Below the pieces are notes generated by a model, which worked only from the letters and a program-made list of their open reading frames with translations, was not told the origin of the DNA and did not search any database. A program made the translations under genes and the position numbers. A stretch of 63,906 bases of DNA, the filler included, from Dugesia japonica (lineage: Eukaryota): assembly GCA_001938525.1 (NCBI GenBank). It is 6 parts of 6 records of this genome, joined end to end, with 100 filler letters (N's around TTAATTAATTAA, not from the genome) between each part and the next. Parts side by side here need not be neighbours in the genome. Positions count along the whole stretch, not along the records: positions 43,922 to 55,437 come from MQRL01640716.1; 5 more parts are not named here. One strand, given 5' to 3'. Below are positions 34,686 through 59,208 of this stretch, piece after piece (the first letter of the stretch is position 1; each line of letters begins with the position of its first letter).

Positions 34686-34785
34686 NNNNNNNNNNNNNNN
34701 NNNNNNNNNNNNNNNNNNNNNNNNNNNNNTTAATTAATTAANNNNNNNNNNNNNNNNNNNNNNNNNNNNNNNNNNNNNNNNNNNN
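34686..34785. other. Artificial scaffold spacer
   Basis: N44-TTAATTAATTAA-N44. Confidence 0.95.
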
Positions 34786-34786
34786 G

Positions 34787-37700
34787 ATTTTCTCAGATAA
34801 ATTTGGCAGAATGGCAGGATGCGTATTAAGCTATTATATGATTTCTGTTTTTGCTACAACAGCCGCATTATCGCCATGGTATAGCATGCATGCAGTTGGA
34901 AGGCTTTTAACTGGGTTTGCTGTCAGTATTTCATTTGTAGCAAACAGTGCAATGGCATTAGAAATTGTTGAAATCAATCATCGAACTAATTTTGGATTTT
35001 ATTGGTCTTTAGGATACGATGGTGGTTATTTAATATTAGTTTTTATTACATATTTCGTTAGAAATCATTTTACTCTTCAAATTGTCACTTGTTGTCTTTC
35101 TTGTGTAGCNNNNNNNNNNNNNNNNNNNNNNNNNNNNNNNNNNNNNNNNNNNNNNNNNNNNNNNNNNNNNNNNNNNNNNNNNNNNNNNNTCATTATGCAC
35201 ATAGCGAAATTCAACAAAAAATGTGTTTCGGAAACTCAAGTTGATAAATGTATTCAAATATTTGAAGATGAAAGATTGTGTAGCGTAATTAAACAAGTCA
35301 GCATAAAGGTGAACGGAGATATTTATTTATTTAATATTTTAATTGAGATTATTTTAATAAAGATAATTTGAAACAAATCTTTTCGTAAAGGTTTTTTAAA
35401 TATTATTTTAAAACCATTATCCATTAATAACTAATTTGTTTTCTTTCTAAATTGAAATAGATTTTGTTTTAAGTGGTAAATAATCTTCGCTTCATTTCTT
35501 TACAATTTGAAATGGTAAATTTGAATTTATATTCTAAATTTTGTAATTTAAACCTGTGTTGATTCTATGAGAATATTTTTTAAACAGCTTTAGTTGGCGT
35601 TAAACTACTCTTTGATGATCAGTAATGTATTTTAGGGAATGTAAATGTTAATATGAATTTTATAAATTGTTTAAATGAAGTATTAATTTAACTTAAGTTT
35701 ATTAAAGGAAACTTTCGTGAATGCTTGAGAACTTAAAGTCATATAAAACTATATTCAAATATAAAATAATAATAAAAATCCATTGTGCTCATAATATTTG
35801 ATAATATATAAACAAAGTTAACATTTTATTTTCATTTCAAATTTTTTAATGTTTAATTATTGATTTATTTTATTTTAATAAATTCAATGTTTTTGTTTAT
35901 TTTATAATTTTTTTAAATACATGAATATATTTTTTTGTATTAATTTTTGTTTTAATAAATGAAAATATTTACATTACCTCCATACCCATTTTGTGTTGTT
36001 ATCGCATTATTCGGATAATATCTTTGTTTATTATTTCCGAATTATTTTATTAGATATTCATTCTTATTAGGATGATTAAACTGCCTAAGATTTGGCCTAC
36101 TGACTATAGTGGATTTATTGATTGGTTATTTTTAATCGGATCAGATTTTTTATCAGACAAAATTTTTTTGATCGGATCAAATTCGAAAATTATTTTATTG
36201 TTGTTAAAATTAATTAGTTATTTTGTGTAATTTTAAATTTTCTTTTAATAATTTTTGAATTTTTTTTGGGTTCAATGGGGCTGAGTGCAGTTTTGTGTGG
36301 AATATAAATTTTGGTGCAATGTTTATAGTGTTGGTGTGTGTAGAGGAATATATTGATAAATACAATTTGAGACCGATTGTGTGCGGATGTGTTGTTTATG
36401 AACTTTTGAGTGAATTTAACCAAGTCGTTGAATTCAGTTTATAGGTTGTCAAAGGTAACTATGGGCTAAAATGGCCTGAGGGTTCCAGAACTTTTCTTTA
36501 AAAAATCATAAAAGCTTGGAACTTTTCTTTAAAAATATATCTATTGTAATAAAAAATATTAAATTTTAATAAGAAGCAAAAACTTTTGTTAAATTTCTTT
36601 AAAAATGTAACAAGGATTACTTAATAAATTCTTTATATATATGTGCATAATAAAAAACTACAACGTAATATATTTAATTATTTGAAAATTAAATCTCTAA
36701 ATTTTAATGGATATAATATGTACTTGAGTTGTACTTTTATTACATCTGTCTTGCAAATTTAAAAATTCTTTCAATCAAATTGAATAAATCTGAAGTAATG
36801 TTATTTACATGAAATGTTATCTTTGAAAATTCAAATTTCTAAATTCTAGTTTTACTGCTTTTCCTGTTGAGAACACATTTACACATAAATGGACATATTT
36901 TACAAGCCTTAAAGTAGGAAATTAGTCTTGTTCGAACGAACAATTGACTATTCTTGCTAATGTTTACAAATTAAGTGAAACTCTCATATTTACGACAATT
37001 GTTAGCGATTGTAATTGTATATTTTTGATATCATAGGTGTTCAAATCATGTGGTTCCAATGGTTTCTTACAACCCAGTATTCTACATTTTTCTGATCTTA
37101 GGAATATTATTGAAAACTTTGCGAATTGACACGGTCTATAGAAAAGCTCATTTTCTTTGTTACTACTTGAGACACTTCACTTCTGTAATTAATATTACTT
37201 ATCATAATTAATTACATTTAATGAATTAATGAGGAATATAAGATAGTTTTTAAAAAACAGATTTAAATGTTTTATCTTTAAAACGAAAAGTTTTTAAAAT
37301 CAAAAGTATATTTAAATTTGTATTAAGAAAATAATTTATAAAATAAATTACTCATATGTAAAGATTTTGAAAAAAAATTAAATGAATGAAAAATGTTTAT
37401 TTTAGTGTTTTAAAATTAGATATTAATAAAATATAAGAGTTTAAATATTTAGTATTTTCCGTTTTTAAATATGAATTTTTAAATCTGTATCGACAATATC
37501 TGCAAATATGACCTATTTTGTTACAGTTCTAACACGTGACTTTTCGTCTTTCATTGTTGCTGTTCTGTTGTATCCATTCGTTATGACTCTTGTTGAAACT
37601 ATTTTGTTCTGGACTTCAGAGAACTGCATCTCTGTAGTGATGATCTACATTTGTTTTTTCAATTTTTACTTAGTCTTTTATGTCTTCCCACGTTTTTATT

Positions 37701-40700
37701 GTTTTAAATGGATCTTCTACTTTTTCTAGTTTTCCTGATTTGATAGAATGCTTTATCTTAATGTCGTAACAATTATTCATTATTATCACATTTGTTAAAA
37801 CATCTTTGTTTTATTTTCTACCTTTCCATCTATCATTTACTTATAAATACTCACATTTTCTCCATTCCTTCGATAATTTAGAGCTTTCTACAAATCTGTA
37901 GGCATTGATGATTCCCTAAAAAAAGCCGTTTGGAATCTTTCTTCAAATTCCAATGCTTCGTCTTCATTTTCATAAATTTCCCGTAGTTATTTATCTTTGA
38001 AAGCAACTTCAAACAAACTTCTATGACCTTTCTTTATTCCGTATAGATAAAAATATTTGGCTGTTTTCAGAATAAATTTTCCGACATCAGCGTTCATTCT
38101 AAAAGCTCCAGGATGAATTGCTTCTTTTAGCAAATTCAATGATGCGATGGTAACCTTATTAGTAAAAGTAAGAATATCAAAATTATCCTTAATTATTATT
38201 CAATGATGTAAGCAAAGACTACCATATTTAAGCAAATAATCCATATCTGAGAATATTAAATTTATATTTAATATACGATATTTTCTAATAATAAACATTT
38301 CAATAATCCTTCAAAATTATTCTATGAAATTATACACTTCCAAAAGGTTTTCAAAAAATAGTAACATATTTTTTGTTTTACAATTGCTATTGCGAGAATA
38401 ATTGTTGGAAGTGACCATTGATCGTTTTTTAGAATTCATTTAAAATAAAAGCTTCGATCAAAAATTTTTTTTAATGTTTTTTTTGAGATTAATTCGATAT
38501 TTCGACTTTGTCTTCGTCAGGAATTGACTTTTTAAAAAGTCAATTCCTGACGAAGACAAAGTCGAAATATCAAATCAATTTAAAAAAGACAAAAAAAAAT
38601 TTTTGATCGAAGCTTTTATTTAAAATGAATATATTTTTTACTAAAAAATAATTCAAAACAAATTTAATATAATACAATATACAATACATTTAACAGTTAT
38701 TTAAATTAAATTACATTTCAAAAACTTTCGAAAAAAATGTAAACTATTTCAAAAATCTCTCATATACTTTTATTCTATAAAATATTGTAAATTATTTTAA
38801 CAATATTTCCATAAATAATTTTAATATAATGCAATATAATTTGTACCAAATTATTTGAATTAAATTAAAAATTTTCCCAGATATGTATAATCTATGAATT
38901 ATTCTTACAATATTAATATAAAAATAGATAGGTATTCTTAAAAGATGCTATTGAAATTTTGGAATATTAAAAATTCCGCCATTGATTTTCTAATATTATC
39001 AATAAATCATAAATAAATTTATAATAAATCAATAAAATAATTATAATTATATATTAATTTAATTATTTATTAATATTTCTATTTTTGGAATTTCTAAATG
39101 AAAATAAATTATAAAATATATTTAAATATTGTATTAATTTAAATATTTATTTTAAATATTTATATATTTTTCAAAATTAGGAAATTTTCAAATTCAAAAC
39201 CGTTTTCATTAATCTGCTAATTCTTTGGTTCATATTCTTATCATGTTCATTCAATTGTTATTCATTCGTTCTTGGATCTTCCAAAATTACTAATGAACTT
39301 TTAATTGCCACAGCAATCAATGCCAGTGCTTCATTTATTTGTCGATCTACTTACATGATCCTTTGTCAAAGAATCGGCCGAATCAGTATTTTGTTATCAT
39401 TACAATTAGGAGTTGCATTTTTATTTATCGGCAGTATGATTTTTAAATAGTAAGTTTAATTAATTATAGAATTAATTTTTTTTTAAAATAAATACAAACA
39501 ATTTTTAATTAAGATATTAACTTTTAAACTTATTTTTTAATTTTTAAATTTCTCTTTTAAATTCTTTAATTATTAATTTTAAAAATTAAACACAGGAAAA
39601 AATTTAAAAACATTCATTAAATTTTTATCTATTATATTTCACGCGTCATCATTCATTAGAACTGGAAATTCGATTAATTTAAATTTTGTCAGCAATATCA
39701 TTATTAGTACAAGGTGATACAAAAGTAGATATAAAGTAATCATTACTGTTATAAATATTGAAATTGTTTATAATTTTCATCAATAAAATTTGTTTATGTT
39801 TAAATATTACAAATTTTTAATTTTGTCCAATTGAATATTTTAGTTTTAATGTATTTTAGATGATCATTGCTGGTAATTAAAATATTAACTAACAGTATTA
39901 AACGATAATAAACGCTAGAATGGTTACAGATGAATGAGGGGAAGCTATTAAAACATTTAAGTATGTTCAAAAACTTTAGAAAATATGTGGAGAAAAAGTT
40001 TTAAAAGTAAATAAAAAATGTTATTAGAAAAAAGTATTCCGTTTTTTTATTGCATTGTTCAAGTCTCAAAAATTATCGAGAATAAAAGTTTGCAATCATT
40101 TCCAACGTTTGGTGTTGATGATTTAATATAAATTATAATAAATATTGTTTGAAATCCGATTATGTAATCGGCGCTGCAACCAGGTCACGGCTTAAAGAAG
40201 GACATTCAGATAATTTTTAAATGGATTTGGGTAAGGAAATTTACAACTCTTAAGTCAAAAATATAAAATTAAATCATTATATTGTATTTTTATAGTACAA
40301 AGCTGCACCTATAAAAAGATTTAGTTGCACATTAAGTGATAGTTTGAAAAAGTACTTTGTGCAAACCGCTAATAAAACCGAGATAAATGTGTTACCGAAA
40401 CGTATTCATATTTATAATCATTCATATTACAGGAGTTTAAATGGAGCAAGACTATCTTAGATATAGGTTCAAACATACAATTCAAGTTATAGCTATCACG
40501 TTAACAACAAAATTAATTAAGAAACCAAAATATAAAGTTNGAAATCATGTTTAAATCTCAAAAACAAATGCATCTACATTTATCAAGAATTTTGATAGCA
40601 ATTAGAGCGATGAGGGGTTTCAAAAAAATCAATAATTAGTATTTATTTGATTAGAAATGATGAGAATAATTTGGTTCAAAGAAAGTTTTATAAGCAGAAA

Positions 40701-43418
40701 TTTTACGAAATTTTGCCGCCAAACGTCTTAGAATAAAAAAATTATAAAATCTAAAGAAAGCTGTAAGAATAGATAATACTATGTAAAGAGGCATAAATAT
40801 CAAAATCCCATTCTAATATGAGAACTACAGTTAGTTAATCAACAAAATTATGAATAACTCAAATTATGCCTACAGTATTACTTATTAATAGCTGTACTCT
40901 TATTCATCCAAATAATAATTTTAGTATAATCAGTGTTAAGTGGAAAAAATCTGATTTACTTGTATGGACAATGGTAAGTAGCCATGATAAATTTGATCTT
41001 CGTATATTATACCTACTAAATATGAGATACGGAAAAATGAATGACATCATAAAACTATTAGAATTAATAATAAAGATAAAAATAACAGTGTTGGAGTAGT
41101 TGATAATTATTTCTAAATATTATTCTTATGAGATCATATTGGAAAGAATCGACTACACGCTAAAATGTGGATACAGTTTAGTGTCTAACCAGATATCATA
41201 CTATAATGAAATTTACAGAGCTGTTTATGAAACATTTAAGAAAAATTATTCAACTGAAAGAATTAAAATTAAAATATGATATTGCATGGTAATGATTTTA
41301 TTTTGGCTCATGACACACTTAGCCGATCTGAACATTTTTGCGGCACACTTTACACACTCCGGCCTACAATAAAACTATTTTTAGCTTCTCTTCATTTTCA
41401 TTAATTTTTTTCATTCTCGAAAATTCAAAATTTGATATACTTTAAATTTTAAGACAAAATATCTATAATTTTTTCTTTTTGGATTTAAACTTTTTAATGA
41501 GAAGACAAAGTCTGCTTTCAAAAAGCAAATAAGGTTGAAACGAGACTCCAATATTGACATCGAAGAAGCTGGTCTCTCCTTTTGTATTTGATTATAGTCA
41601 GAGCTAAAAATAAAATAGGTAAAACCACAAAGACGTAAAATGTAAACGAATTTTAACTGCTTTTGAACTAATCAAAGGATATGACGGTTTAAGAGAGAGG
41701 CAAAACTCGTCAGAAAAACCAATTGATGGAAGTTGTTGTTCATTAAGTCAAAAGGTTGTTCTTTTTCCATGGTTATAAGATTTGCTGTTACACGCATATA
41801 AATTGGACTGATGTTGAAATGCTGCTTGGAAACCTATTTCTGAGATAACAACAACAATGTTTTATTTGACTATAATTCATTAATCGAAGAAAAGCAGTCA
41901 AAATCACGCTTCAATATTTTGTTATCCCACGGTATCAGATTTTTACAAGTTTTGATGTTGATGAGATAATAATTTTCAATTATCCTCGAAGACTTAAATT
42001 CACAGAATTCAGTTTGTCAAAAGAATTGGAAAGATTGAACTTTCATATCTCGTCATACAGAGAAAATTTGCAATCTACTTCATTGACCTCCCAAAACGAA
42101 ATAACTTCAATTTTTAGGTTAACAAGACACTTTAAAACTTTTTCTTTCGAGAACCAACAAACGTTGGTATGATAAAGCATATATTTATGGTCTTAATCGA
42201 TGACATTTCAAGGTTGAGAGAAAAGTCGAGATTCGGGTAGTCGAGACTTACAAATAACTCAATATCCAGCAATTCCAAAATATATGCCATAAACATGTTT
42301 TTATCCGTTATCCAGGGTTGGTCTTTATTCTGACTCTGAAATTTTTCAAAGGTTTTGACTAATCAAAATCGATTATACATAAATAAAGAAAGAAAGTTTT
42401 TACCCCAGAAGCAAAGAGTCAGTCTTTGTTTACGTGCATCACTATCTACCTACTGGCATGTTTCAATATTATAAGTTTGCCTGTTAATACAATGTATGTT
42501 ACCATTTTTTGTTATTTTTTATTTATATATAAATAAAACTTCTGTCTTTAATACAGGCCTGTATTGTTTTCATTATATATATATTTTTGGTAAAAATAAT
42601 ATTGAAATCTAAGAGATAAATAGAGATTTCGTTTTTAAAGTGATTCATTTGTTTTAATCGTTTCAATATTTATGAATAATATTTGTTGTTAAATAATTAG
42701 TTATTTAGTTTTTTTGTTATTTCTTCTGAGAAACATAATTGACAATACATAAATATTCAACCGAGTTATTCGAATAATAAATTTATCGATTATACCTAGC
42801 TTCATTTATTTTTTAGTTTTGAAAATAATAATAGATAAAACAAACCATTAATTTGTAGTAATATGTACATGGATTGTTAGGATACAAAATGTAGATTAAT
42901 ATATATAAACTGACCAAACTGACTGGAATATAATGTTGCGAAATTCTTTGTAAACTAAACAAATTTAAACAAAGTTTTATTTTGTAAAGTTTTGATTCTT
43001 AATAAATAATTTAAATTTCAGTTTCTACGGTGTAAAAAATTTGTTTACAACAATTTTTTTAATGATTGCAATATCTATGTCTTCTACAAATATTGGATTT
43101 ATGTGGATTTATGGAGGAGAAGCATTTCCAACAGTAATTAGATCCACTAGTGTTAGTATTGGATCAGCATGTGCCGGGATTTCTGGAATAATTGCTACTC
43201 AGATGGAATGGGTATTTGAAATTGCACCGAATGTCCTACCAATGATCGGAATGGCGATGGCTCTAACAGGATCAGCTTTAACATTTTTCTTTTTACCGGA
43301 AACATTTAAACGTCTGAGTCTCGACTTTTTACCACAAGCTGAAAAATATTTTAAAGAATGGCGCCAACCTTGGAGAAAGCACACGAAAGTTATTATTGAT
43401 ATGGAATGTAATACTTAG
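34787..43418 (+). CDS. MFS transporter, SLC22/organic cation transporter-like, 3' part (3 exons visible)
   Basis: Exons <34787-35308 (FSDKFGR motif A, EIVE...R; N gap inside), 39181-39449 (EIFKFK...QRIGRI) and 43022-43418 (YGGEAFPTVIRS, LPET). Phases 0 and 2 are consistent; introns are ~3.9 and ~3.6 kb. The 5' end is lost at the scaffold edge. Confidence 0.85.
37488..38200 (-). mobile_element. LTR-retrotransposon gag fragment
   Basis: CX2CX4HX4C knuckle C*NCNKIGHICRYC at ~37490-37535; gag-like helical region upstream with frameshifts. Confidence 0.6.
38491..38525 (-). ncRNA. Minimal type I hammerhead ribozyme motif (family A), intact core
   Basis: AAUUC-CUGACGAA-GAC(AAA)GUC-GAAA-UA-UC-GAAUU: 5-bp stem I, 3-bp stem II, palindromic AUAU stem III, predicted AUC cleavage triplet. 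Confidence 0.8.
38542..38576 (+). ncRNA. Hammerhead motif (family A), degenerate 3' strand of stem I
   Basis: AAUUC-CUGACGAA-GACAAAGUC-GAAAUAUC-AAAUC; mirror copy of the previous motif. Confidence 0.65.
41490..42200 (-). mobile_element. Decayed hAT (Buster/Charlie-type) transposase fragment in the SLC22 intron
   Basis: MLYHTNVCWFSKEKVL (cf. LLYHTEVRWLSRGKVL) and FDKLNSVNLSLRG (cf. FxKLNxLNLSLQG). Confidence 0.75.
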
Positions 43419-43821
43419 ATGTTCTTTTAGTAAAGATATTTCTTCTGTTTTAATGAAACTTGGTTATTAGTGTTATTTTATTAAAATATAATGAGAGATT
43501 TTGTAAAATGTTTAATTTATTTTTAAAATAAAAATTTCAAAGCTCATAAATCAATAATTTGTCTTGATATTCTTAGTATACTTTGTACAGAATTGTTAAT
43601 CTTTTTTCTAATTTAATTTCAGTTTCTTAACCAGGCTTTCGTTTTTCCATTTTAAATCACATCTGTCAAATATAACTTATTTTAACATCAAATTGCCGAG
43701 TAATATTTTATTAAAGAGTTCTACAAGTGTTTATGAGTATAAAGATTTTAGCAAATACCTGAACAATTCCTTTGATTTTATATTGTAATCATGTATAAAA
43801 TATCATCACCTCATATAGTAT

Positions 43822-43921: not shown

Positions 43922-45606
43922 TTACAAATAAATTTTGTTTTGATCGAAGCTTTATCTTATTTTAATGAAATTATTAACAATAATCAAAGCAATGTAATGA
44001 TTGAATATAACGATCAGAATCAAAAATCAAAACTAAATTATTATACTAAATCGGCGTAATATTTTTATTAACAGGTACAATCATTTCTCAGAAAAATTAT
44101 AGTAATAAAACATTAGAGTAACCACCGTTATCAAAGTTCATTTTCAAGTTATCTTAACAAAATTCGTTTTCACAACTATCGTGTCATTTTTACCGATGTT
44201 TATGCATAATTATCATATCATTTTATGGAGGTTCATTTCATGCCTATCATATAAATCCATCAGGATAACCATTACTTCATCATGATAACTATTAATTCAT
44301 TTAAAACTTCTTCACAATAACTATTAAATCATTTACAACTTCTCCGTGATAACTATTAAATGAGTGGACGATATCTTCTAAGATATCTAACGTTGACAGC
44401 CGCTACTGCCGACGGAGTCGACGAGCAACTACTCTCTACACAGTCTCCTTCTTTATCACTTTTTTTATAAGCATTTAAAATATAAATAACAAAAGTTTTA
44501 CTTTTCTTTTCATCTCCTGGCTTATTTAAAAATAACAGTTAATGTTTCGACTTGACACTTTTAACAATAAGTTAACAAGCTTTTAATTTTTAAAAGCTTT
44601 TGAATTTTTAAGAGCTAACTTTTTTATAAATTTTCATCGGTTTATATACTATTCTGTACAGTCACTATTTGACATATAAACTGATGGGTATCCACTTCAA
44701 ATTTTGTAGAAATCCATTGAATTGTGCGGTACTCACTTGCAGATTCTTTATGAAGGTCTATGATTTGTATTTTTTGATTTTTTCATATTATTTACCGGTG
44801 CTTACTTGGCATCATAGATTTCTATTAGCATTTTAATTTTATACGTACAAAGTGCGTTGCTCACTCGACACAGATTTTATTTTTATTTCTTGTGCGGTGC
44901 TCATCCGACACAATTTGTTCATAATTATGATCTGCTAGAACGTGCACGGTGCCAATGAAATTTGTGATCATTGNACCGGNACGAGTCAATAATATTTTTG
45001 ATAGATAATAATTTCTGAAACTTTGTTGAACACCTATAAATAAAGATATATACACGAATATTTATAAATACTTTAATATGCTTTCAATATCCTAACTAAA
45101 CTTTTTCTTATCTTTCATTTCGTATGACTTTTTTTTATTATATTCCCATTCTTTCAATAAAATTAATAATCTTTGTCGCAAAATAATAATGCTAGATTTT
45201 AATACTTTATTAAGTTATTATATTAATATGATGTTCCTAATTGAATCATACTGATTTTAATAATATTTTATTAATTATAATAATAATAATGATTTATTTC
45301 ATACTTATTTTCTTGTAATTTCTCTTAATTTTATTAAAATCTTTTAATAATACTTTTGTTTTAAATCTACATTATGATAATAATTATTTTATTATATTTC
45401 TACTTCTACTACATTTATATAAATTATAAATAATAATATGTAGCATTCATTTATTCGATCTTTACTTCATTTTATTATTTCTTTCTGATTTATTAGACTA
45501 ATTTAGAATTGTTCTTTTGATTTATTGAGCATTTTCGATTTTCGATATTTCCAGCTTTGAATTTCCGTTTAATTAATTATTATTTCTCCAGATTATTTGA
45601 TTATTA

Positions 45607-48600
45607 TTAATTCCCGTCCATTTTCCGTTTTAAATATTTCACCTTAGACGATTTAGACTTCGCATTTTCATGTTCAGTCTTGCATTGTGAACAATAACTG
45701 GGCGTCAATCTTGACATACCATCAGCATTGGAATGATATTCCCCTTTCCTATACTTTAGTTTGAAATCATATTCTGATAATTCGTTCATTTTAAATCTGA
45801 AACTATGGCATAATTGGTTTTTTCGAATTCTTTATAAACTCTAAAGCTTTGTGATCGGTTCTTGCGACAAAACGTTTCCCATAAAGATAATACCAAAAAT
45901 GTCGAATAAATAAAAGAGCCAATAACTCCTTCCTGGTCACGCAATATCCTTTTTCAAGTGCGTTCAATAACCTTGATTTATATGTTATAACGACTTTCAT
46001 ACCGTTGTGTGATTGGCTCAGTACATCACCAATTCCCGAAAAACTGGCATCAGTATCTAGAATGAATTGACCTTCTGAACTAGGATACCCCAATACTAAA
46101 GAGTAACGAAGGGCTTCCTTGCTTTTCTCAAAAGTCGTCTCTCGTTTCTTTGTCCAGATGATCTCGTGCTTTGGATCTTCGGTAGCAGCATGTAAAGGTG
46201 TAGCAAGTTGCGAAAAATTCTTTATAAATTTTCTATAATAGTTTGCCATTCCATGAAAAGATCGCAACTGTTTAGTACATTTTGGAATTCCAGCATTAAG
46301 AATCTCCTTGACTTTTTGATTTTAATCCAAATTTGTTTATTGTATGACCCAAAAACACAATCTTTTCTTGATACAGTTTACATTTGGCTGGATTTACTTT
46401 AAGACCAGATACTTGAATTTTTTGAAATATTTCTGCTAGAATACGATCATGTTCCTTCCAAATTTTTGCAAAGGTTAGAATATCATCGATATAAACTACA
46501 ACACTCATAAATAGAATATCCGTCAAAATTGTTAGCATAAATTTTTGAAACGTAGCAGGAGCGGATGATAGGCCGAATGGCATGCGATTATAACACTATA
46601 ATCGATTATAACTGGCCTTTCTTTGTAAAACAAAGAGGTTTTAATTTTATCCTCCTCTTCTAGTTCGATTTGATAATGCTCTTGGCTGATATCTAGTGCT
46701 GAAAATATGATACATTTGAGGATCTGGCATAGGAAACAAAAATCTATCAGTTGCTTCATTCAATAATCTGAAATCCTGACACATGAGAATAGCTCCATTT
46801 GTTTTGCTAACAATCATCATAGGTGCGTTCCACGGGATACTGCATTCTTTTATAATGCCGCTTTTGATAAGTGTTTCAATTATCTCATCAATAATGTTTT
46901 CTAGATGCTTCGGCTGTCATCTTGGCTGTAGTAAAACAGGATTTCTTGTTGTTTGGATAGGATGTTTAACTAAGTGTGTTTTAACATGATCAAACGTATG
47001 CGTGATGAATATCGAGGCGAAACGCATTTACAATTTTTTCAAGATNNNNNNNNNNNNNNNNNNNNNNNNNNNNNNNNNNNNNAAATGATCCTCATCAGAA
47101 ACATTACACATTACATTATCTGACTCGATTAATCCAATCATCTTTAATTGGATATTAAAAACTTTGAACATGTCCATTCCGCTAATGAACTATGGGCTTA
47201 TACTCTGTACAACCACCAAATTGACAGTTGCGTTCATATTAAGGTACCCAATTTTCACATTTCCGACGCCCAAGCATTTAACGGCTTCTTTCGAAAATGC
47301 TCCACTAAATTTTATCTGTGAATTTTTCAATGGGAACGAAACACATCTTTTCCAAGCATTAGATTACTGAAATCTATGCTTATGAGTCTCACAACATCTA
47401 CACACCTCTACCATTCACTTTAACTAAGCTTTAAATTCTTCTATCGCTCTTCTCATACATCTCGTCATCTACGTTTAAATTTCGATTTTGATTTTTTCTT
47501 ACTGTCTTGACTCCACAGACGAAATTGGAACAGTGAAGTTTTCTCGTTTAAGTAGTTTACATCATGTGCTACTTCATCTGATTCATCGCAAATTACATCT
47601 ATTACATCTTTTTATTAGTTTTATCCACAATACATTTAAAAATTGTTTTTGTGGTGATATTTCCCAAGCAGTCTACAATTTTTAAACTTATGTCCCGATA
47701 TTTTACAAATTAAACAACAATCTTTTAGAGGACAATTATTACGAAAATGTCACATTGAAACACAAAAAAAACACATCCCTGGTCTCAAAATCCCTTCTCT
47801 TGGAGGTAGAAAACCTTTTAATTGATTATACAACTTTCTGGCAATGAACTTCATGGATGTCGTCGGCGAGTTTCTCTGGATTTGCTATTGGTATAAAATT
47901 TCAGAATTTTTTTTCTGGATAATTAACAACAGGAGCTAGCCTTTATGCAACTGACCTATCTGGAATTCGAATGTAGCTCTGAACATTACTTTTTCCTGTA
48001 TTTATCCTCTTTAACATCGGACGGTAATTAGCTGCTGCCACTTCAGAATATGATAATTTATTGACTGATAACTTTCTCTCAATGTCATCGTTTTTTCATA
48101 ATTTGCAGCTAGCTGTCGCATACCATCAGCATTCAAATCTGGTTTCAGGACAAATGCTTTTTTTAAATCTTGATATTTTACTATTTTATGAATTACTTGT
48201 TTCATAATTATTTCCATTGATAATCCGGATTTTAATATTTCTTTCAGAGTTCTTGTAACTCGAAATTTGACATTTTCATATCTTTCACCAGTCTTTTGAC
48301 TGATTATATTAAAATCTTCAATCATCCGTAAAAAAGATTTATCTTTGAAGAACTTTAACTTGAACCAATCTCTTGTTGATTTGTCTTCTATTTTGGTTCG
48401 TGATTTATTAGCTAACCATAAATCCTTAGCGTCGCCATCTAATAAAAAATAAAAAGTTGACATGAGGTTAAAGTTATTAGTGGCTGAGAACGTTCCAACT
48501 CCTTTCAACCAGGCAATTGTATTTTCATCACAATTTCCTGAGAATTTTGTTATTCTTGGAAATAACAGTTCTCGCGATTCTTTTTGTAAAGCTCCATAAA

Positions 48601-48640
48601 TTCTTTTTGCTTCTGCTGCCTGTTATTGAATTGACATGGT
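45607..48640 (-). mobile_element. Decayed Ty3/gypsy LTR retrotransposon (gag, RT, RNase H; no integrase seen)
   Basis: gag ORF 48011-48508 and knuckle CLICKISGHKFKNC at ~47670-47720; RT MPFGLSSAPATFQ and VYIDDIL; RNase H FILDTDAS, YCVTRKELLA, RTDHKAL and HSNADGMSR. Confidence 0.92.
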
Positions 48641-50194
48641 AGTTGGAACCAGTTACATGAGTAATAAGTGACATCTTGAAATTCAAAAATATATTTCACT
48701 ACTAAAAAATGTTACCAACCCCTGATCTAGACCAATATTATTATATTATTTATATTGTGAAGATTTACACATCTAATTTTTTTATGCGAGTTTGATTTAG
48801 CGTGATATTTATTACGACGCGAATTAATTCATTTTTTGATGTTCAATATTTGTTACCTTACTTATTTTATGTATTCAGATTTATATAAATCGTTAGCAGA
48901 ATACAGAAAACAAACAGGTGAAGGATTTATGATCGTTGCTAAACTAAATATTGACTTATAATTTACTGATTTCTACTCATTTTAGCAAAATTTTCTTAAA
49001 GAAAAATTATTAATTTAGAAATTATTGAACCTCATTTCATGACAAATAAATATTTTTTTATTTTATTTTTTTTTATTATTTGAATATTTCATAAATTATC
49101 CAGTTTATTTATTTTAATAATAATCTTACAAAGATTACCTGAAAATTAACATCAATGGAAATATCATCGGAATACCATTGGTTAATAAAAGAAAGGAAAA
49201 TCATTTAAAAAAATATTTGTATGCAAATGTCTCANNNNNNNNNNNNNNNNNNNNAATTATTTTTATTTGAATCAAAATATTATTTTTCACATGGTTCTAT
49301 CACAGCTAAATTGTCACCCACACTATTTTGAAAAAATACTGTCAACTTGCAAACTAAAAACACCAATTGAATGCAATTCAGTGCCTCTAGTGGTAATTTT
49401 TTGTACTACATATAATAGATAAAGTTTGTGGCTATTCAGCAACATTATGCAAGAGTCAGATGTTTGATTACGCATAGTATTTATTAGTGAGAATTTAGCG
49501 TCTGCTCCGTTTCTCCAAGTATATATTGATTGTCTCGAATATTAATATCTTTGTCTTTAAACTCCAATGTAATATCTAAACTGCCCAAATAGTTAATCTA
49601 AGTCTGAAACTGAAATAATATCAGTTTTTTGGTCTATTCTAAGAATAAATTGCTTTGTATACAAGCAATGTTTAAAATGACACAAAAATTTTACATAGTC
49701 AATAGTTCTTTAGGTCTTGTTACTCATTACATATTACCCATATACGCATACTCGTTTTCTTTATCTACATTTCGTTATCAATATCTCGTGTGATATTACC
49801 GCACCAATCATTTTGAAACTGACGTCTATGTCCCATATCAATTCTCTATATATGTTGGAAAAGCATAATACTGAAAATATTTGTATGCAAATGTCTCACA
49901 ACTTACCTAGTTTTAAAGAATTATTTTTATTTGAATCAAAATATTATTTGTCAATAGTGCTTATTTCAGTCCATTAAAGCGTCTTCCAGTTTATTCTTCA
50001 TTCAATCTTGTTGCTATGTCTGTTCCAACAAACTGGTTTAGTTTGAATAGTCCTTAAATAATCTGTGATAGTATTTACCAATTCCCAAAAAGCTTCACAT
50101 TGAGTGAAATCATTTGCGATCTTACCAAAACTAATATCGAATGTAAGTGAAAATATTTTTCTTTAGTAAAAAACACAAACTAGTTACAATAATA

Positions 50195-50820
50195 TTTATT
50201 CAAATATCGATCCAGATTGGATTGTACGCCATTTGAGATTTTCCAAATAAGTTTTCTTAACTTTTCTAAGAAAGACACTTCATAATATGATAGAGATGGC
50301 TGTTGGTTAAAAAATAATTCAATATTTTTGAGACTCTCAATCGTGAATTTTCTCGTGACGGTTTCTTCTGATTTGCTGTTAACTATTTCATTCTATTGTA
50401 TGAAATCCTCAAAAATATCATCATGCATCACAATACTTAATATTTCTTCATCGTCAAACATTTTTGAAGTTACCAAATCAACATCGGAAGTTATAAGTTC
50501 ATTAAAAGTGACAACATTTTTCTTTCCTTTTCTCAAAGCTAAATTTGTATATATAGCATTTACAATGATGCTAAATCAGTAGTATTGTCCTTTGGGTTTG
50601 GCTTTTCATCGTCAACAAGTCTGAATTTCAACCATTAAGTTTTTATTGTACTACATGTTACTCCTTCCAATGCAGAAAAACACTACTTTATGATCATATC
50701 CATTGCAATATAAACATTTTCATCAGCATCTAAAAAGTTGATTATTTTCTCTAATAAAAACTGCTTATAATTTATTTTAAAATGCTGGATTACGCATTGG
50801 TTCATTGATTGAATGTGGGT
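50195..50820 (-). mobile_element. pogo/Tigger-type transposase C-terminal fragment, truncated at the Polinton boundary
   Basis: THIQSMNQCVIQHFKINYKQFLL (cf. TSxLQPxDQGVIxxFKxxYR), then DLVTSKMFDDEEIL and a terminal QSNLDRYL. Confidence 0.7.
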
Positions 50821-51312
50821 AGATAGATAATCCCGAGATGCATCCTTTTTTTGTTAGCGTTTTTAAATTTTTCAAAAAATTTTTTAAATGAAAATAATAA
50901 ANNNNNAAGGTATTATTTTCTAAGTAAAAATTAAAAAATTCTCATTTTTTAATTTTTATAAATAGCGCATTTTCTATGAAAATATCGGAAAATTAGAAAT
51001 CGCGCAAAAAACAAGAAATGTAAAAAATTAGAAATCGCACAAAAAACAAGAAATTGCAAAAGTGTCATTTTCTACAAAAACAAGAAATGCAAAAAAAAAC
51101 CGAGAATGTAAATTCGACCATGAGAAATTTCAAAATCGTAAATTTTTTGAAATTGAGAGTAGAAAAAATTTCCTCTTTAAGAGGATACCCTCTCACAAAA
51201 AATAAAAAAATATGAGTATAGAGATAACTGCCATTCTTAAGCACCACTACTATAAAAAAAATTACACAGTGCGATAGAAAAAATAAATCATAAATTTTTC
51301 CTTTAGAAAATA

Positions 51313-52739
51313 ATGGGAAGAATAGGACCAGGTTTAGAATTAACTTTAATAGCATTTAATAAAATAGTAGGTAAAGAACTGCCTACTTTAGAAGAAATTA
51401 AAGATTATAAAAGAAATTAATCACTAGTGCAGATAGTGGATGAAAATTTAGAAGATTATAATTTTTTAAAAAAAAATTTGAAACATTAGATTTAAATGAA
51501 ACAGAAAAGAAACACTATGGAAAATTATTAGAATATTTTACTGCGTTAGCAACAGATGCAGAGTGCAATGGAGAGTTATACTTTCAAGCTGAGGATGAAA
51601 AATATGAGATAAAAAAAATTACCAAAAGGAACGAGATGAGCACAATGCGGCATTAAAAAAATTAAATGAAGAATTAAAACCCAAAATGGTTTGTTATAAA
51701 CAGTTTGGTTTAGATACAGATCCAAGAATTAGAAAATTTAGAAAACCAATAGAGTGTGTAAAAAAAATTAAGATTTAACTCTATAGAAAATGGAAGAAGA
51801 AAATGAAATCGGGATAGATGTAATTTATAATATAATTGAATATTTAAATGATAATAAAATATATGATAAAAAGATTAAAGAATATTTAAAAAATAAATTA
51901 ACAAAAGATGTAGAAGAAAACTTAATTAGCCTTAATCAATAAAATAAAATGGTAGAAGAAAATAAAATAAAAGAAAAAGACAGGGAGATGTATAAATTTA
52001 TACTATCTTTTTTTATTTATCAAAACATAGAAAATGAGTGTATGGATTTGTTACTTAATTCTAAAAAAACGAAACAAACAATAAAACCAAGAATAATTAC
52101 TTATAAAGACTTGTGTTTTACATTTTCATTAAAAGAAGGTAGAAAACGACTTTCAGAAAAAGAGATTATAAAATTTTAGGATAACTTAGAAGGGAAAGAA
52201 AAAACTACAGAAAAATCTAAACGAGTGAAAGTTCCCCCATCATGTACAAGTATAGCTAGAGCAACAGCTAAAAAAATTATTATAAAAAATGCCTGATTCT
52301 ATTTTACTCACAATGATGAAAAATTATAATTTTAAAAAAAATTCAATAAAAGATTTTTGTAAAATTAATTAATTTAATGAAAAAACAATAAAAACATATA
52401 TAATTAAATTTAACATTCCTTACAATAAAATAACAACAAAAACTTTAATGGAAAGAGATAATAATGGGAGATTTATTTCGCTAGAAGATGGGGTTGGGAA
52501 AAAAACACCATAGTAAAAAAAATAATGGAAATGATAATGGTAGGGACAACCGTAAAGACAATAGTAGGGCCAACTGTTATAGTGATGCTAATTGTAATGG
52601 TAACTGTAATGGTAATTGTAATGGTAATTGTGATGGTGATTGTGATGGCGATGGAAAAAGAAAAAGTAAAAGAAGATGTCAAAAACCATCTGATATGATA
52701 AATTATAAAAAAATACACACCATTAAAAAATTACTATAG
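51313..52739 (+). pseudogene. Cluster of small Polinton accessory ORFs of unknown function
   Basis: Consecutive ATG-started A-rich ORFs at 51313, 51790, 51949 and 52448/52488 with internal stops or frameshifts; the last contains a TAATGG/TAATTG-type hexamer repeat. Confidence 0.5.
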
Positions 52740-52742
52740 AAA

Positions 52743-54036
52743 ATGGAGCTGAAAATAAATCTCGATAATAATATTATTTTTACTCACGAATTATTAAAAA
52801 AATGACATTTTAAAATTTTCACCAACATCGGGTTCAATAAATAATATGATGGGTGGAGGAGATGTTTTTTTCCAATCTTTGCAATCCACAAATCCATTAG
52901 ATATTTGCAACGCAATGTTATATTTTAAAATTGAAACAGAAATTGAAGCTGGTAAAACTGTAACTCTAGAAAATAATTTTTTTCCATCTTTATTTAAAAC
53001 AATGAGATTAAGACTTGGAGCATCAGATGTAGAAACTATAAATGATCCTGGCACAATAACAACAATGTTAAATTTAATTTTAACAAGTTATATTCATAGA
53101 AAAGTATATGGAGAATTATCAGGATGGGTTTTAGAAGAAGACCGAAGAAAAAAATTATATGCAATTAAAAAATTTGAAGTATATTTTCCATTAAGAATTT
53201 TATTTGGATTTATACAAAATTTTAACAGAGTTCTTTACAATACAATGATTAAATGTTGTTGTAATCGACAACTAGAAGATAAATTAATATTTAAAGGAGA
53301 TGGTACCGGAAAATTAAAATTACTAGCATTAGAATTACACATTCCAGAATGTCGACTTACACCAAAAATGGAATTATTATTATTAGAAAGAATTTCTACA
53401 GACCGCCCAATTAAAGTTGCATTTCTAAATCGAATAACTGGTAAAATGACATTAGACTCATGAAATTATTCTTCTTATAAAATTAGCAATCTTTCATACA
53501 AACCAAGATATATTTTTATAGTTATAAAAAATGAAGTTATTTCTTTTGCAAATAATAATAATTAATTTATACAAAAGAAAACAAAAACTACAAAAGTGAC
53601 AGTACCAGCAGTACCACCAGCAACTGTTGATACAACAAAAGATAAGCCCACCGATTATTATTTAAAAACTATGCAAATACAATTAAATAATAATTACTAT
53701 CCAATTAACGAATGTAAATTTAATATGGAAAATAATGAAATGATTTATCCTTATTTGAATTATATAAAATGTTGTCAAGATTTTTTTACAGAACCACAAT
53801 TAACACTTTTAGAATTTATTAATGATTATCCTATTTTCTGTTTTGATGTTACAGCAAAAGATGATAGATTAAATATTAAAAATGTTGATGTAACACTTTA
53901 CATTACAAAAGATCCAGAATTTACAGGAAATCTTTATTGGTGCATTCTTAAAGAAAAACATATAGAAATGAAATTAGCAAATAATAAAATTGCAATGGTA
54001 GAAAATGTTTGTGGTGTTGAATTTTTAAATAAGTAA
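52743..54036 (+). pseudogene. Polinton/adintovirus major capsid protein (double jelly-roll), disrupted
   Basis: One ~430-codon frame after allowing a +1 shift in the A7 run at 52796-52802 and in-frame stops at 53461 and ~53563. Motifs PLRILFGF, KPRYIFIV, QLNNNYYP and YPIFCFDV are typical of Polinton MCPs. Confidence 0.8.
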
Positions 54037-54037
54037 A

Positions 54038-54559
54038 ATGGTCAAGTCAATAAAATTTACATGTGAAAAATGTCATAGAATTTTATTAAAAAAAAATAAA
54101 GCTCGTCATGTAAAACTTTGTAAAGGTGGTGGTGATCTTCAAAAATCGAGTTTTATTAGTAATGTTTTAAAACCATTTACTTGGGAAAAATATGAAGGCG
54201 AACGACATTTACCCGGACATAATTATACTGGACCAGGAACTAGATTAGATATTAGACTTGATGAAAATAATATTCCGAAAGAAGGAGAAGAACCAGTTAA
54301 TCGAATTGATGCAGCAGCATTGAAACATGACATTGCTTATTATTCAGAAGACATGAGAGATCGACACGTAGCAGATGTACATTTAATAGAAGATATTAAT
54401 AATATGGAAGATCCTACTTTGGGAGAAAAATTTCAAGGCTTTCTTGTAAAATTAGCAATGAAGGCAAAATTATTAATTGGTCAGGGAGCGAGCGAAGCAA
54501 GCCACGGAGGGACTATAAGTAAATCAAAACAAATAAAAAAAATTAGAAACGAGCTATGA
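54038..54559 (+). CDS. Zn-finger + parvovirus VP1u-type phospholipase A2 domain (PLA2X)
   Basis: CEKCHRILLKKNKARHVKLC (C2HC finger); LPGHNYTGPG calcium loop; PVNRIDAAALKHDIAY catalytic HDxxY. Confidence 0.9.
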   Translation: MVKSIKFTCEKCHRILLKKNKARHVKLCKGGGDLQKSSFISNVLKPFTWEKYEGERHLPGHNYTGPGTRLDIRLDENNIPKEGEEPVNRIDAAALKHDIAYYSEDMRDRHVADVHLIEDINNMEDPTLGEKFQGFLVKLAMKAKLLIGQGASEASHGGTISKSKQIKKIRNEL

Positions 54560-55327
54560 GAATGAAATACCCTATGAAGAAACGGTGGCAAATGAATTAC
54601 ATCATGAATATAAAAAACCAAAACAATTTTTAAAAGTGCAAGTAAGCGCTCCTGATGAAATTTGGTCTGCAGATTTAACATTTCATAATAAGAGAGTAAT
54701 ATTAACTGTGATTGATCTTTATACAAGATTTGCTTTTGTTGAACTTTGTCAAAATAAAACCGGTCTATAGGTTACTAAAGCATTTGAAAGAATTCTAGAA
54801 AATAATATTTACACTCCAAATAATTTATGGGTTGATCATTCATCATTTACTACTTTTTGTGAAGAAAATAATATTAACCAATATTCTACTCATAATGAAG
54901 GAAAGGCAGTTGTCATTGAAAGATTTAATAGAAAATTTAAAAACAAACTTTTTAAGCATTTTACTGCTGTTGGGAATCAACAAATTACAGATGGTCTTTT
55001 ACAAAAAATTTTAGATAACTATAATAACACAATTCACTCATCAATCAACACAACTCCAAAAGAAGCATACAAAACTGGAGAAACAAAAGAAGAAGTTCAA
55101 AATGAAATATATAAAAAACCTAAGTTAAAAATAGGAGATCGCGTGCGAGTATTTCTTACTAAAAAAATATTTTAGGAAAAGCATATAGATTTAAATGAAC
55201 AGTTAAAATTTATACAGTGACAAAAAGATATTTAACAATTCCACCAACATATCAAATCACAGATTTTAATGGGAAAAAAATTCTTGGAAGATTTTATGAG
55301 AATGAGTTACAAAAAACTTCTCTGTAA
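54543..55327 (+). pseudogene. Polinton retroviral-type (rve/DDE) integrase, disrupted
   Basis: ANELH, EIWSADL, LTVIDLYTRFA, LWVD, VIERFNR, YNNTIHSSI.TTP, KIGDRVR and GRFYENELQK. Stop at 54768, apparent deletion after LWVD, frameshift near 55175. Confidence 0.9.
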
Positions 55328-55332
55328 AAAGG

Positions 55333-55437
55333 ATGAGTAATTTTGTTTGGAAAAAAGACAAAGTAATTTTTAAAAATAAAATTTTTCCTAGTAATTTTAG
55401 ATTGTTGATAATTGGATCTTCTGGTTGTGGAAAAAAT
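55333..55437 (+). CDS. Polinton packaging ATPase (FtsK/A32-like), N-terminal fragment
   Basis: MSNFVWKK...FPSNFRLLIIGSSGCGK Walker A; starts 5 nt after the integrase stop; truncated by the spacer. Confidence 0.8.
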
Positions 55438-55537
55438 NNNNNNNNNNNNNNNNNNNNNNNNNNNNNNNNNNNNNNNNNNNNTTAATTAATTAANNNNNNN
55501 NNNNNNNNNNNNNNNNNNNNNNNNNNNNNNNNNNNNN
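55438..55537. other. Artificial scaffold spacer
   Basis: N44-TTAATTAATTAA-N44. Confidence 0.95.
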
Positions 55538-55604
55538 TGTAACATGTTGATAATAAAAATGATTTTGAAATGTCAAAAATGATTTCAACGAGGAGGTTAA
55601 ATCT

Positions 55605-56260
55605 TTGAGCAGATGGAGTTTCAATACATCTATACCATATCAAATGCCGAACCTGTTTGATTCGGTGGAAGAATATGGAACACAGAGAGAACCATGGTGG
55701 CAATATGAGGACCTCATCAGGCTTAGAGACTTGGAAATTGTAGGGTTACGAAGCAAAATCGAAGGATTAAAACGAGAGTTAGAACAGAATGAAACATGTG
55801 AAGTCTTATTAAATCAAAATCAAAACTTGATGAATCAAGCACTCGCCAATCTCATAGAAAGGTTATCAGATCATCTCAGACGGCCACCAAAGATATACGA
55901 ACAAGGAACGGTATCCAAGTTAAACTTTTTGGCTCATAATAAAGTAGCAGAACGTTTGGTCTACAAAAAAACAGTAGAACTAGAGTAAAAAGATTGAGGA
56001 AAGAGCTAAAAGACTCGAAAGAGAATACAACAGTCAAACGGAAATTGTCGAGGCTATGTGAAAGATTAAGTTTAAGCCGCAGGCGCGAGTTGACGTTGAT
56101 CAATAACAATAGAATGTTAGCCAATATTATTAAGAGCTACGTGGACCGAGAAGTCTCGGTGCTCGCCAATATCAAAACTCTCTGGAGTGAGTATGACGGA
56201 CAGAAGATTACAGAAACAGATTTTGTTATCATCGAAGAGATCATCTTTGGGTCACCGTGA
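55605..56260 (+). CDS. Intronless coiled-coil ORF pair, probably one frameshifted ORF of mobile or viral origin
   Basis: Two abutting ORFs (127 and 88 aa) with heptad-like Leu spacing and higher GC than the flanks; no recognised domain. Confidence 0.4.
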
Positions 56261-57870: not shown

Positions 57871-58971
57871 TTATTTGGCTTTTCTTTTTTTTGATTGTTT
57901 CTTACTTAATTTGATATGAGAGTTCTGTGGATTTTCCATAACCTTTTAAAAATTTGTAATTATATTTAATTAAATTAATTACGTTATACATTTTTAATAT
58001 TTTTTCTATTGATTTTTTCCAAGAATTCTGTAGCTTTTCGTTTTCTATTTGCTTGCAAATTCGAATTATCAGTACAATTTACAGGTTGTTGTTGTTGACA
58101 ATAAACTACCATAAAATAATGATAACTAATCAATGATTGCACTGTTACTCACAATTTTGGCGGCCGATTTCTTCAGCATTAATTAAACATGAAATATAAT
58201 CAGTAACTGTAACCAATTTCTGTTCAACAGGACTTGCAATTATACGGCTTTTATGACTTTCAACAGTTAGTTTCGGTGCTGACTGAATATTTCCAGAAGG
58301 AACCTTTTTAATGAAATCTTCCCATTTTGGATAATGATTAACAATTGGCATCTTAACATTCTGTTGGGTATCTACTAATTTATTTAAACATCAATTAAAC
58401 AAAACCAAATCATAAATTAAAAGAATTTTTTATTTGTATTTTTATAATTTCAAATTTAAAAACACACTATTTGATTTTTTGGCTCGGGATAGACAATGCT
58501 GATAAAAACTATGATTTTGATTATCGGGATCAAGAAATTTCAGTTTATCACTTTTACTCATGATTGCATATTCAAATTCACTGCCGTGCTTCATTATATA
58601 ATCTACAAATTTGATTGTAATGCAAAGTTGCTTTCTCCTTTCAATATTTTCTTGCTTCAATCTAGAAATCGATTTACATGTTTTCTTCACTAATCAACCA
58701 TAATACTTTTCAATTCTTGCACTTTCTTCTTGGTCTTTTTGATATTGTTCAACGCCTGCTTTGGCAGCATAAGCTGCGGCATTTATCGCCAAAGATTTAG
58801 AATCTTCTTGGATTTGAAGTTGATTTGATTCTTGAAGCATTGGAGTATTGTTGTGTACTTGGTAGTAATAATTGTAATAATATGTATAATATTTTTCATA
58901 AAGGCTTTTGTATAATTTTTCTTTCGTGTCTTCTATTTCATCTGGAGAAGTGACATCGAATTCCTTGTTAT
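57871..58971 (-). CDS. SFSWAP: SFSWAP (suppressor of white-apricot)-like SURP splicing factor, last five exons
   Basis: Exons 58971-58707, 58661-58468, 58371-58153, 58105-57990, 57942-57871 (introns 45, 96, 47, 47 nt; phases consistent). SURP domain IKFVDYIMKHGSEFE...KFLDPDNQNHSFY; LQANRKRKATEFL recalls SFSWAP LQAERKRKAALFL; ends in basic KKQSKKRKAK*. Confidence 0.72.
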
Positions 58972-59208
58972 CTGAGAGATAACATCATTGGTAAAATCAA
59001 GAGAATTTTTAAAATTTAAAAGAATATCGACAAAACAATATCAAAATTTGAATTATGAAAAAATAACAATTAGAAAAATTTCTTTTCTAAATATAAATAT
59101 ATAAAATATTAAAAATATATTAATATTAACAACTATTAAAAAATTATTTTTCTTCGTTATACTTCAATGTTTTGATAAAATTAAATTATAAATCAATATT
59201 AATATATA

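Follow-up and report, generated by a model that had tools for sequence, protein, structure and literature searches.

A decayed Polinton-type element in Dugesia japonica with a probable PLA2-integrase fusion

What is the compact run of genes at one scaffold end in the Dugesia japonica genome, and does it encode anything that known elements of its kind do not? We analyzed a stretch of 63,906 nucleotides from this genome (hereafter the window), in which scaffold parts are joined end to end by five identical 100-base spacers (N44, TTAATTAATTAA, N44); all coordinates refer to this stretch. The genes at 51313-55437 all lie on the plus strand, are tightly packed and lack introns. The original prediction had taken such a dense, single-strand run within 50821-55437 for an integrated Polinton or adintovirus, and the named genes are indeed found there on the plus strand. 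A double jelly-roll capsid protein, a phospholipase A2 (PLA2), an rve integrase and an insertion edge make it nearly certain that the element is of Polinton type: the sequence covers the left end of an element of the Polinton/Maverick (adintovirus) type, now decayed, with a group 2/Alpha-type virion module. Since Polintons with PLA2 are already known, the element itself is ordinary. What is probably new is the likely fusion of its PLA2 to its integrase.

The major capsid protein (MCP), of the double jelly-roll PY/hexon type, is encoded at 52743-54036 (+), where the coding region is interrupted by a frame switch near an A-run at 52796 and by stops at 53461 and 53563. With X placed at the two stops, the translation matches the double jelly-roll family PF21738 in Pfam (E 8e-13), and its AlphaFold model reaches a predicted local distance difference test score (pLDDT) of 80.6 and a predicted template modelling score (pTM) of 0.82. 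Compared with 48,161 PDB representatives, this model best matches the PBCV-1 capsid (Z 24.9, root-mean-square deviation (rmsd) 3.0, 335 residues aligned). Rows 1-16 of the fold search are all viral double-jelly-roll proteins, down to phiCjT23 at Z 8.9, and the first non-viral match follows at Z 8.0; Foldseek agrees with this fold. The original prediction had named the lack of such a fold among the things that would refute it; the fold search did not refute it, and the capsid is by its model a true double jelly-roll. Sequence comparison reaches less far: a PDB search with the MCP alignment found nothing at E up to 1, leaving identification to the fold search, and the best matches in BFVD share at most 15% identity.

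Relatives of the MCP number 20 when searched with the single sequence and 103 with a 12-sequence profile, the closest being up to 52% identical. Those that carry a name are all hypothetical Lottia gigantea proteins (PF21738), 26-29% identical over nearly the full length, and no named adintovirus is among the 103 matches of this word-limited search. A quick tree of 36 selected near-full-length proteins from the 103 matches plus the window protein (37 rows), containing no reference adintovirus hexons (Mayetiola, Terrapene), places the window protein in a 6-row group (support 99) inside a 15-row group (Shimodaira-Hasegawa-like approximate likelihood ratio test 100) apart from Lottia. Members of this 15-row clade are 36-52% identical to the window MCP. 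The original prediction raised an undescribed family; this may be so, as the named relatives are all unannotated Lottia proteins, in comparisons that cover no reference adintovirus hexons. Relative to its closest relatives, the MCP has gained about 23 residues rich in Pro/Thr at 53590-53660 (+), and near residue 113 one of its loops is about 12-16 residues shorter. Lottia gigantea itself contains dozens of unannotated capsid copies, and one Lottia gene model (P0020) shows by eye a GGF motif followed by a hydrophobic pX-like stretch.

An open frame at 54038-54559 (+) encodes a Zn-finger-like N-terminus, a GG site, a parvovirus-type PLA2 and a GxG site. This 173-residue protein matches PF08398 in Pfam (E 1.1e-11) and the PLA2 motif of adeno-associated virus VP1 (E 0.065). 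It retains the Tyr/Gly/Gly of the Ca-binding loop as well as H97, D98, Y101 and D113, each conserved in most relatives, and of the three large coding regions that can be identified it alone is free of lesions. The rve integrase, with D46, D100, E128 and a C-terminal beta domain, lies at 54537-55327 (+). Its rve match (E 8.3e-6) is below the Pfam cut-off (26.4 versus 32.6 bits); an integrase profile matches the window frames with independent E-values of 1.9e-52 and 2.2e-10. Over about 200 residues the protein is 44% identical to a natural integrase. Its reading is broken by the switch out of the PLA2 frame near the A-run at 54535, by two stops (54768 and 55196) and by another switch near 55161-55178.

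The original prediction had listed PLA2 and integrase as separate genes. We consider it likely, from the sequences, that they formed one Zn-finger-PLA2-integrase open reading frame (ORF), broken here at 54535, because no Met occurs in the integrase frame and because divergent relatives carry colinear in-frame fusions. The ATGs nearest to the integrase lie in another frame and lack the AAA context found at 5 of 8 other starts. Searching 1.84 billion representative proteins with PLA2 gave 1,073 matches, of which the best 150 were examined. Tails of at least 25 residues behind PLA2 are present in 61 of these 150, and 21 of the 61 tails are integrase, the profile following directly on PLA2 (8 of the 21 had been seeds of that profile). 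Eleven more of the 150 carry the N-terminal helix motif of the integrase alone (12 were flagged, one of them false on inspection). By tblastn the window integrase is matched by 17 of the 150, and among 18 long relatives scanned with Pfam, 4 have PLA2 and rve on a single chain.

Five complete fusions (P0123, P0149, P0198, P0230 and P0239), only 27-42% identical among themselves, each map in order onto the window's PLA2, integrase and integrase 3' frames, and in several relatives the integrase helix begins within a few residues of the GxG motif. The catalytic Asp, Asp and Glu of the window integrase align with those of relatives, the spacing between the second Asp and the Glu being 6 residues shorter than in P0123. 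The window protein ends at the same point as P0123, P0198 and P0230, without the additional chromo-like tail seen in P0239; no chromodomain was matched by Pfam, and in the P0123 model the final domain resembles a chromo domain at Z 7.1 only. That model (pLDDT 73.2, pTM 0.51) predicts two separate domains joined by a low-confidence linker, one helical and PLA2-like (rice PLA2 at a middling Z 7.9, rmsd 4.1, 92 residues aligned) and the other an integrase (foamy virus intasome, Z 20.4, rmsd 6.8, 230 residues aligned). In a quick PLA2 tree of 112 rows, from which 39 of the 150 relatives were excluded as too short or starting late, the window PLA2 stands beside P0109 (support 82) inside a 16-row group (92). 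P0109 itself ends in the integrase N-terminal motif.

Several observations weigh against a fused gene. The 16-row clade is weakly supported, integrase or its motif occurs in only 7 of the window's 15 relatives in it, and the tree holds no well-supported group containing the window row. Moreover, 52 of the 150 relatives stop right after PLA2 and 27 carry other tails; a further 35 are too short to judge, and 3 were flagged as pX-like, one of them convincing by eye. Because the library also contains chimeric gene models that couple PLA2-like pieces to fn3 or MBT domains, gene prediction may have created some of the fusions artificially, and all were judged from database proteins rather than from the underlying DNA. 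These points would suit an ordinary group 2/Alpha-type Polinton with separate PLA2 and integrase genes, in which the integrase start has been lost and the database fusions are joins made by gene predictors. The window PLA2 frame is open and has its own stop, and passages on published elements give PLA2 (CAP/PLA2X) and integrase as distinct ORFs. However, the five complete fusions diverge from one another while their junctions are compact and can be aligned, and the Met-less frame and the helix that in several relatives closely trails GxG also speak for one gene; we regard separate genes as unlikely. Somewhat more improbable still is that the switch at the A-run is natural recoding, by ribosomal frameshifting or polymerase slippage, yielding much PLA2 and little PLA2-integrase in the manner of gag-pol. 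The switch does sit in an A8 run just ahead of the stop of a lesion-free PLA2, near relatives include both fused and stop-terminated forms, and frameshift fusions have been hypothesised for other adintovirus ORFs. Yet the offset here is +1, whereas viral frameshifting is usually -1, in the same copy both the MCP and the 3' end of the integrase are disrupted by similar A-run switches (19 A-runs of at least 7 in the element), and complete in-frame fusions exist.

A different question is how the element replicated. A Polinton-type virion module and integrase could have been combined with helicase/primase replication and no family B DNA polymerase primed by a protein (pPolB), an arrangement compatible with either fused or separate genes. 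According to passages of 10.64898/2026.06.19.733378, PLA2 is frequent among Maverick-Polintons of group 2, in which SF1/SF3 helicases often replace pPolB, and the window holds no replicase. Against this, in the parts of PMC8502044 on animal contigs with adenain, rve and FtsK, nearly all encode PolB, and a Lottia pPolB stands among Polinton pPolB2 sequences, although no link to this capsid clade is shown. We rate a helicase-based element as improbable, about on a par with separate genes. The original prediction had also expected pPolB past the scaffold break; this is unproven, as group 2 often has a helicase and genome-collection scans gave no locus (two scans of a bacterial/archaeal collection for the relatives' genomic context returned 5 and 30 pattern matches, none confirmed). 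Finally, the assembly is fragmented, the element's scaffold has transposon relics but no identified host gene, and contaminant adintoviruses are documented in passages on the group, all of which could point to an assembly artefact or contamination instead of a host insertion. We find this very improbable in view of the clean junction within a transposase relic, the premature stops, which imply neutral decay, a GC content of 25.7% close to the window value, and an older integrase relic on another scaffold.

Returning to the fused ORF, its PLA2 is bordered by possible processing sites. Of 103 relatives, 75 have a GxG or GG motif just behind PLA2, and 65 of 86 have one just ahead of it, against a background of 8.5%; the figure of 75 is a position-mapped count, and a stricter motif pattern gave 38 of 109. 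The adenain cleavage motif is given as (MIL)XGXG in passages of 10.1101/341131, and the window's C-terminal site, LIGQG, fits it exactly. From this enrichment and the likeness to adenain sites we infer that a precursor may have been cut into Zn-finger, PLA2 and integrase. Passages of PMC4028283 describe Polintons as encoding a virion module plus rve integrase, packaging of the Polinton lipase in the virion is proposed in PMC4642659, and parts of PMC4642659 and PMC8502044 suggest that this PLA2 assists entry as in parvoviruses.

These elements could be combined as follows. In the germ line of a long-branched animal with AT-rich DNA, the rve integrase would have inserted the Polinton/Maverick into a transposon of the pogo type. 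In the viral phase, the capsid protein would build an icosahedral shell and the ATPase would package linear double-stranded DNA (dsDNA), with the Zn-finger-PLA2-integrase precursor packed into the virion core. An adenain-type protease, not seen here, would cut this precursor at the flanking Gly-Gly/Gly-x-Gly sites, setting PLA2 free to act in endosomal escape, in the manner of parvovirus VP1, and the integrase would enter the cell together with the incoming genome. Integrase delivered with the genome could allow integration to precede viral gene expression.

This part of the reading has its own counterweights. In most relatives the residue four positions upstream of the putative cut is Lys/Arg and not Met/Ile/Leu, and the window is without protease, penton or polymerase. 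Passages on Polintons do not say if the particle carries integrase or if the enzyme is produced once the virus has entered the cell, and the parts of 10.64898/2026.06.19.733378 and 10.1101/2023.08.22.554363 that treat virions state that none has been observed so far. Packaging and processing of the precursor, with integrase carried in the particle, is a suggestion to which we give slightly less than even odds. Taken as a whole, a dead Polinton provirus with a fused PLA2-integrase and a packaged precursor is the explanation we favor with reasonable confidence. More tentatively, and a shade below the packaging proposal, the locus may represent a widespread, unnamed lineage of animal Polintons whose integrase is the C-terminal part of a protease-cut core precursor, with recoding possible in some members. 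If so, the integrase and the lipase used for entry would both arrive in the particle, and a dsDNA virus would prepare for integration much as retroviruses do. With integrase fused to an enzyme presumed to lie in the virion core, natural particles are predicted to contain integrase peptides and to show cleavage at the GxG sites, and the fusion offers a simple marker for a capsid clade with nearly all members unannotated.

How does this arrangement compare with known systems? In passages of PMC8502044 and 10.64898/2026.06.19.733378, the Alpha (Mayetiola-class) adintoviruses or group 2 Maverick-Polintons (Eupolintoviridae, Polintoviricetes) share with our element the double jelly-roll hexon, the parvovirus-type PLA2, the rve integrase and probably the A32/FtsK-like ATPase, as well as dense co-oriented genes and an animal host. 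They differ in that their PLA2 is followed by a pX-like tail (PLA2X) where the window has integrase; the window integrase also lacks a clear extra chromodomain, pPolB, adenain and penton are not seen, and the hexon class is unplaced. The Spodoptera Sf-Mavericks, in the parts of PMC5803895 describing them, likewise have small ORFs in tandem, among them ATP, INT and a PLA2-bearing 'CAP', but INT and CAP are separate ORFs, INT has a chromodomain and the gene order is different. To the Lottia gigantea Polinton-type capsid family (LOTGIDRAFT, PF21738) the likeness is that of the MCP, which nevertheless falls in its separate clade. The PLA2 of the parvovirus VP1-unique region shares the Ca-binding loop, the His-Asp motif and the proposed role in endosomal escape; in the window PLA2 is joined to a Zn-finger and probably to integrase instead of to a capsid protein. 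In retroviral Gag-Pol, integrase enters the virion within a precursor and is freed by the viral protease. If the packaging proposal holds, precursor-borne integrase would be shared with Gag-Pol by analogy only, the present case involving a dsDNA virus, a cysteine protease, no reverse transcriptase (RT) and PLA2 as the carrier.

We found no literature description of a PLA2-integrase fusion, although figures, supplements or Repbase maps may already show one. The words 'fused' and 'fusion' are absent from the main text of PMC8502044, and passages of PMC3671162, PMC3014272, PMC11296320 and 10.1101/2024.03.25.586562 describe no such fusion. The idea that PLA2 marks adintoviruses stands in part: it agrees with passages of PMC8502044 (in which PLA2 is typical of the Mayetiola-class virion module), PMC4642659 and 10.64898/2026.06.19.733378, while the window protein is not of the PLA2X type. 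Its pX tail is absent by eye and by Pfam, no dedicated pX profile having been run, and the GxG site is followed by 23 polar/basic residues or, if read through, by integrase. Membership in Eupolintoviridae is not established, as the window has no PolB, protease or penton, the hexon is unplaced and PLA2 lacks the pX tail. Members of this group are recognised by an OTU-bearing PolB of Alpha or Beta type, a hexon that BLASTP links to the Mayetiola or Terrapene references, and an integrase ending in a chromodomain. Since pPolB1 Polintons are reported from 17 of 23 invertebrate phyla in parts of 10.1101/2023.08.22.554363, one more decayed copy in itself matters little.

The expected Polinton gene set is only partly confirmed, with capsid, PLA2 and integrase present and the packaging ATPase reduced to its first 35 residues, up to Walker A, at 55333-55437 (+). 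The sole Pfam family matched by this fragment is Pox_A32 (positions 5-26, E 0.12), and its PDB matches are unrelated P-loops at E of at least 0.75. The last codon ahead of the break encodes Asn at a Walker A position that is normally Thr/Ser. Given the short length, the E-value and this Asn, the label rests on motif and context; on these, an A32/FtsK-like packaging ATPase is plausible. Pfam recognised neither protease nor penton within 50821-55437.

The sequence 50821-55437 is the left 4.6 kb of the element, at the right end of its scaffold (43922-55437). The spacer at 55438-55537 is identical to the others in the window and artificial, so DNA past 55437 is unlinked to the element. We rejected a continuation beyond it, the next ORFs being without a Polinton match: two overlapping, GC-richer ORFs of 139 and 105 residues at 55569-56260 (+) on the next scaffold match no Pfam family, and the 139-residue ORF has no match in Atlas either. 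On the left, what remains of a pogo/Tigger (DDE_1) transposase, its C-terminal portion, occupies 50180-50820 on the minus strand, with the downstream extent set by eye. The DDE_1 match (E 0.0031, profile positions 115-177 of 177) begins at 50814-50820, mid-family exactly at the junction, which fits insertion at 50821 to within a few codons; by this sequence evidence the element appears to interrupt the transposase relic. A left terminal non-coding region, probably a terminal inverted repeat (TIR), spans 50821-51200 (+), contains four 35-nt tandem copies at 50989-51111 (+; repeat family D1) and starts with AGATAG; Polinton termini are AG. Passages on Polintons describe long TIRs and a target site duplication of 5-8 bp. 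Neither a partner TIR nor a second copy of the element is present in the window, and the right end of the element is missing from it.

Between the terminal region and the MCP lie three small ORFs, all on the plus strand. ORF1 (51313-51778), read as a single gene, has one stop and two apparent frame switches; it has no credible match in Pfam, PHROGs or Atlas, and a likeness of one piece to HSP90 fragments (best Atlas score 0.89) was rejected. The Lys/Glu-rich ORF2 (51790-52296) represents one or two genes, with only weak Pfam matches (E of at least 0.019) and none in PHROGs. ORF3 (52289-52739) is basic and broken and belongs to no family in Pfam or PHROGs; from its composition it is possibly a DNA-binding core protein. 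It includes a 12-bp tandem repeat rich in Asn/Cys/Gly (D3) at 52582-52641 (+) that encodes Cys-Asn/Asp-Gly-Asn units. Across 51313-55437 the plus strand has 44.5% A against 29.8% T.

Taken together, the capsid and PLA2-integrase regions have the four internal stops described above (53461, 53563, 54768 and 55196), and in three places (52796, 54535 and 55161) the frame switches near an A-run; the small ORFs contain further lesions. The switches in A-runs could also be sequencing errors. With four stops among 2,664 coding bases, the estimated level of substitution is about 2.5-4% per site (95% range 0.7-10%), so that the earlier description of the element as fairly young holds in relative terms only: the copy is dead, and an absolute age needs a host rate. 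A second and far more decayed Polinton-type integrase relic lies at 40014-40700 (+) on scaffold 34786-43821 (tblastn E 4e-7, profile independent E-value 4e-4), with no adjoining PLA2 or capsid match.

Elsewhere on the element's scaffold, a broken long terminal repeat (LTR) retrotransposon at 45803-48622 (-), of Ty3/gypsy type by eye, has RT (E 7e-21), RNase H (E 4e-22) and a gag-like ORF; more RT/RNase H pieces occur near 21112-22162. A direct repeat (49210-49290 and 49874-49954, 664 bases apart) flanks a 20-N gap and is possibly an assembly duplication; between its copies the minus strand shows RNase H-like words by eye and no Pfam match. CpG observed/expected is mildly low in the three 2-kb blocks of 50001-56000 (0.59-0.78 versus 0.66-1.46 elsewhere), which may reflect methylation or viral composition. 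The host sequence is AT-rich, with short GT-AG introns. Host genes include a glutamine synthetase and SLC22-like transporters, identified by eye, and a SURP-domain protein (E 5e-8), within 13997-14365, 34742-43418 and 58145-58984. A strongly divergent beta-tubulin at 24101-25382 (+), with introns of about 45 bases and GGGCGGGMG at the signature loop, has an exon that is mostly 75-77% identical to the tubulins of a wide range of animals and 68-70% to those of plants and fungi, and one record (P0300) reaches 97%.

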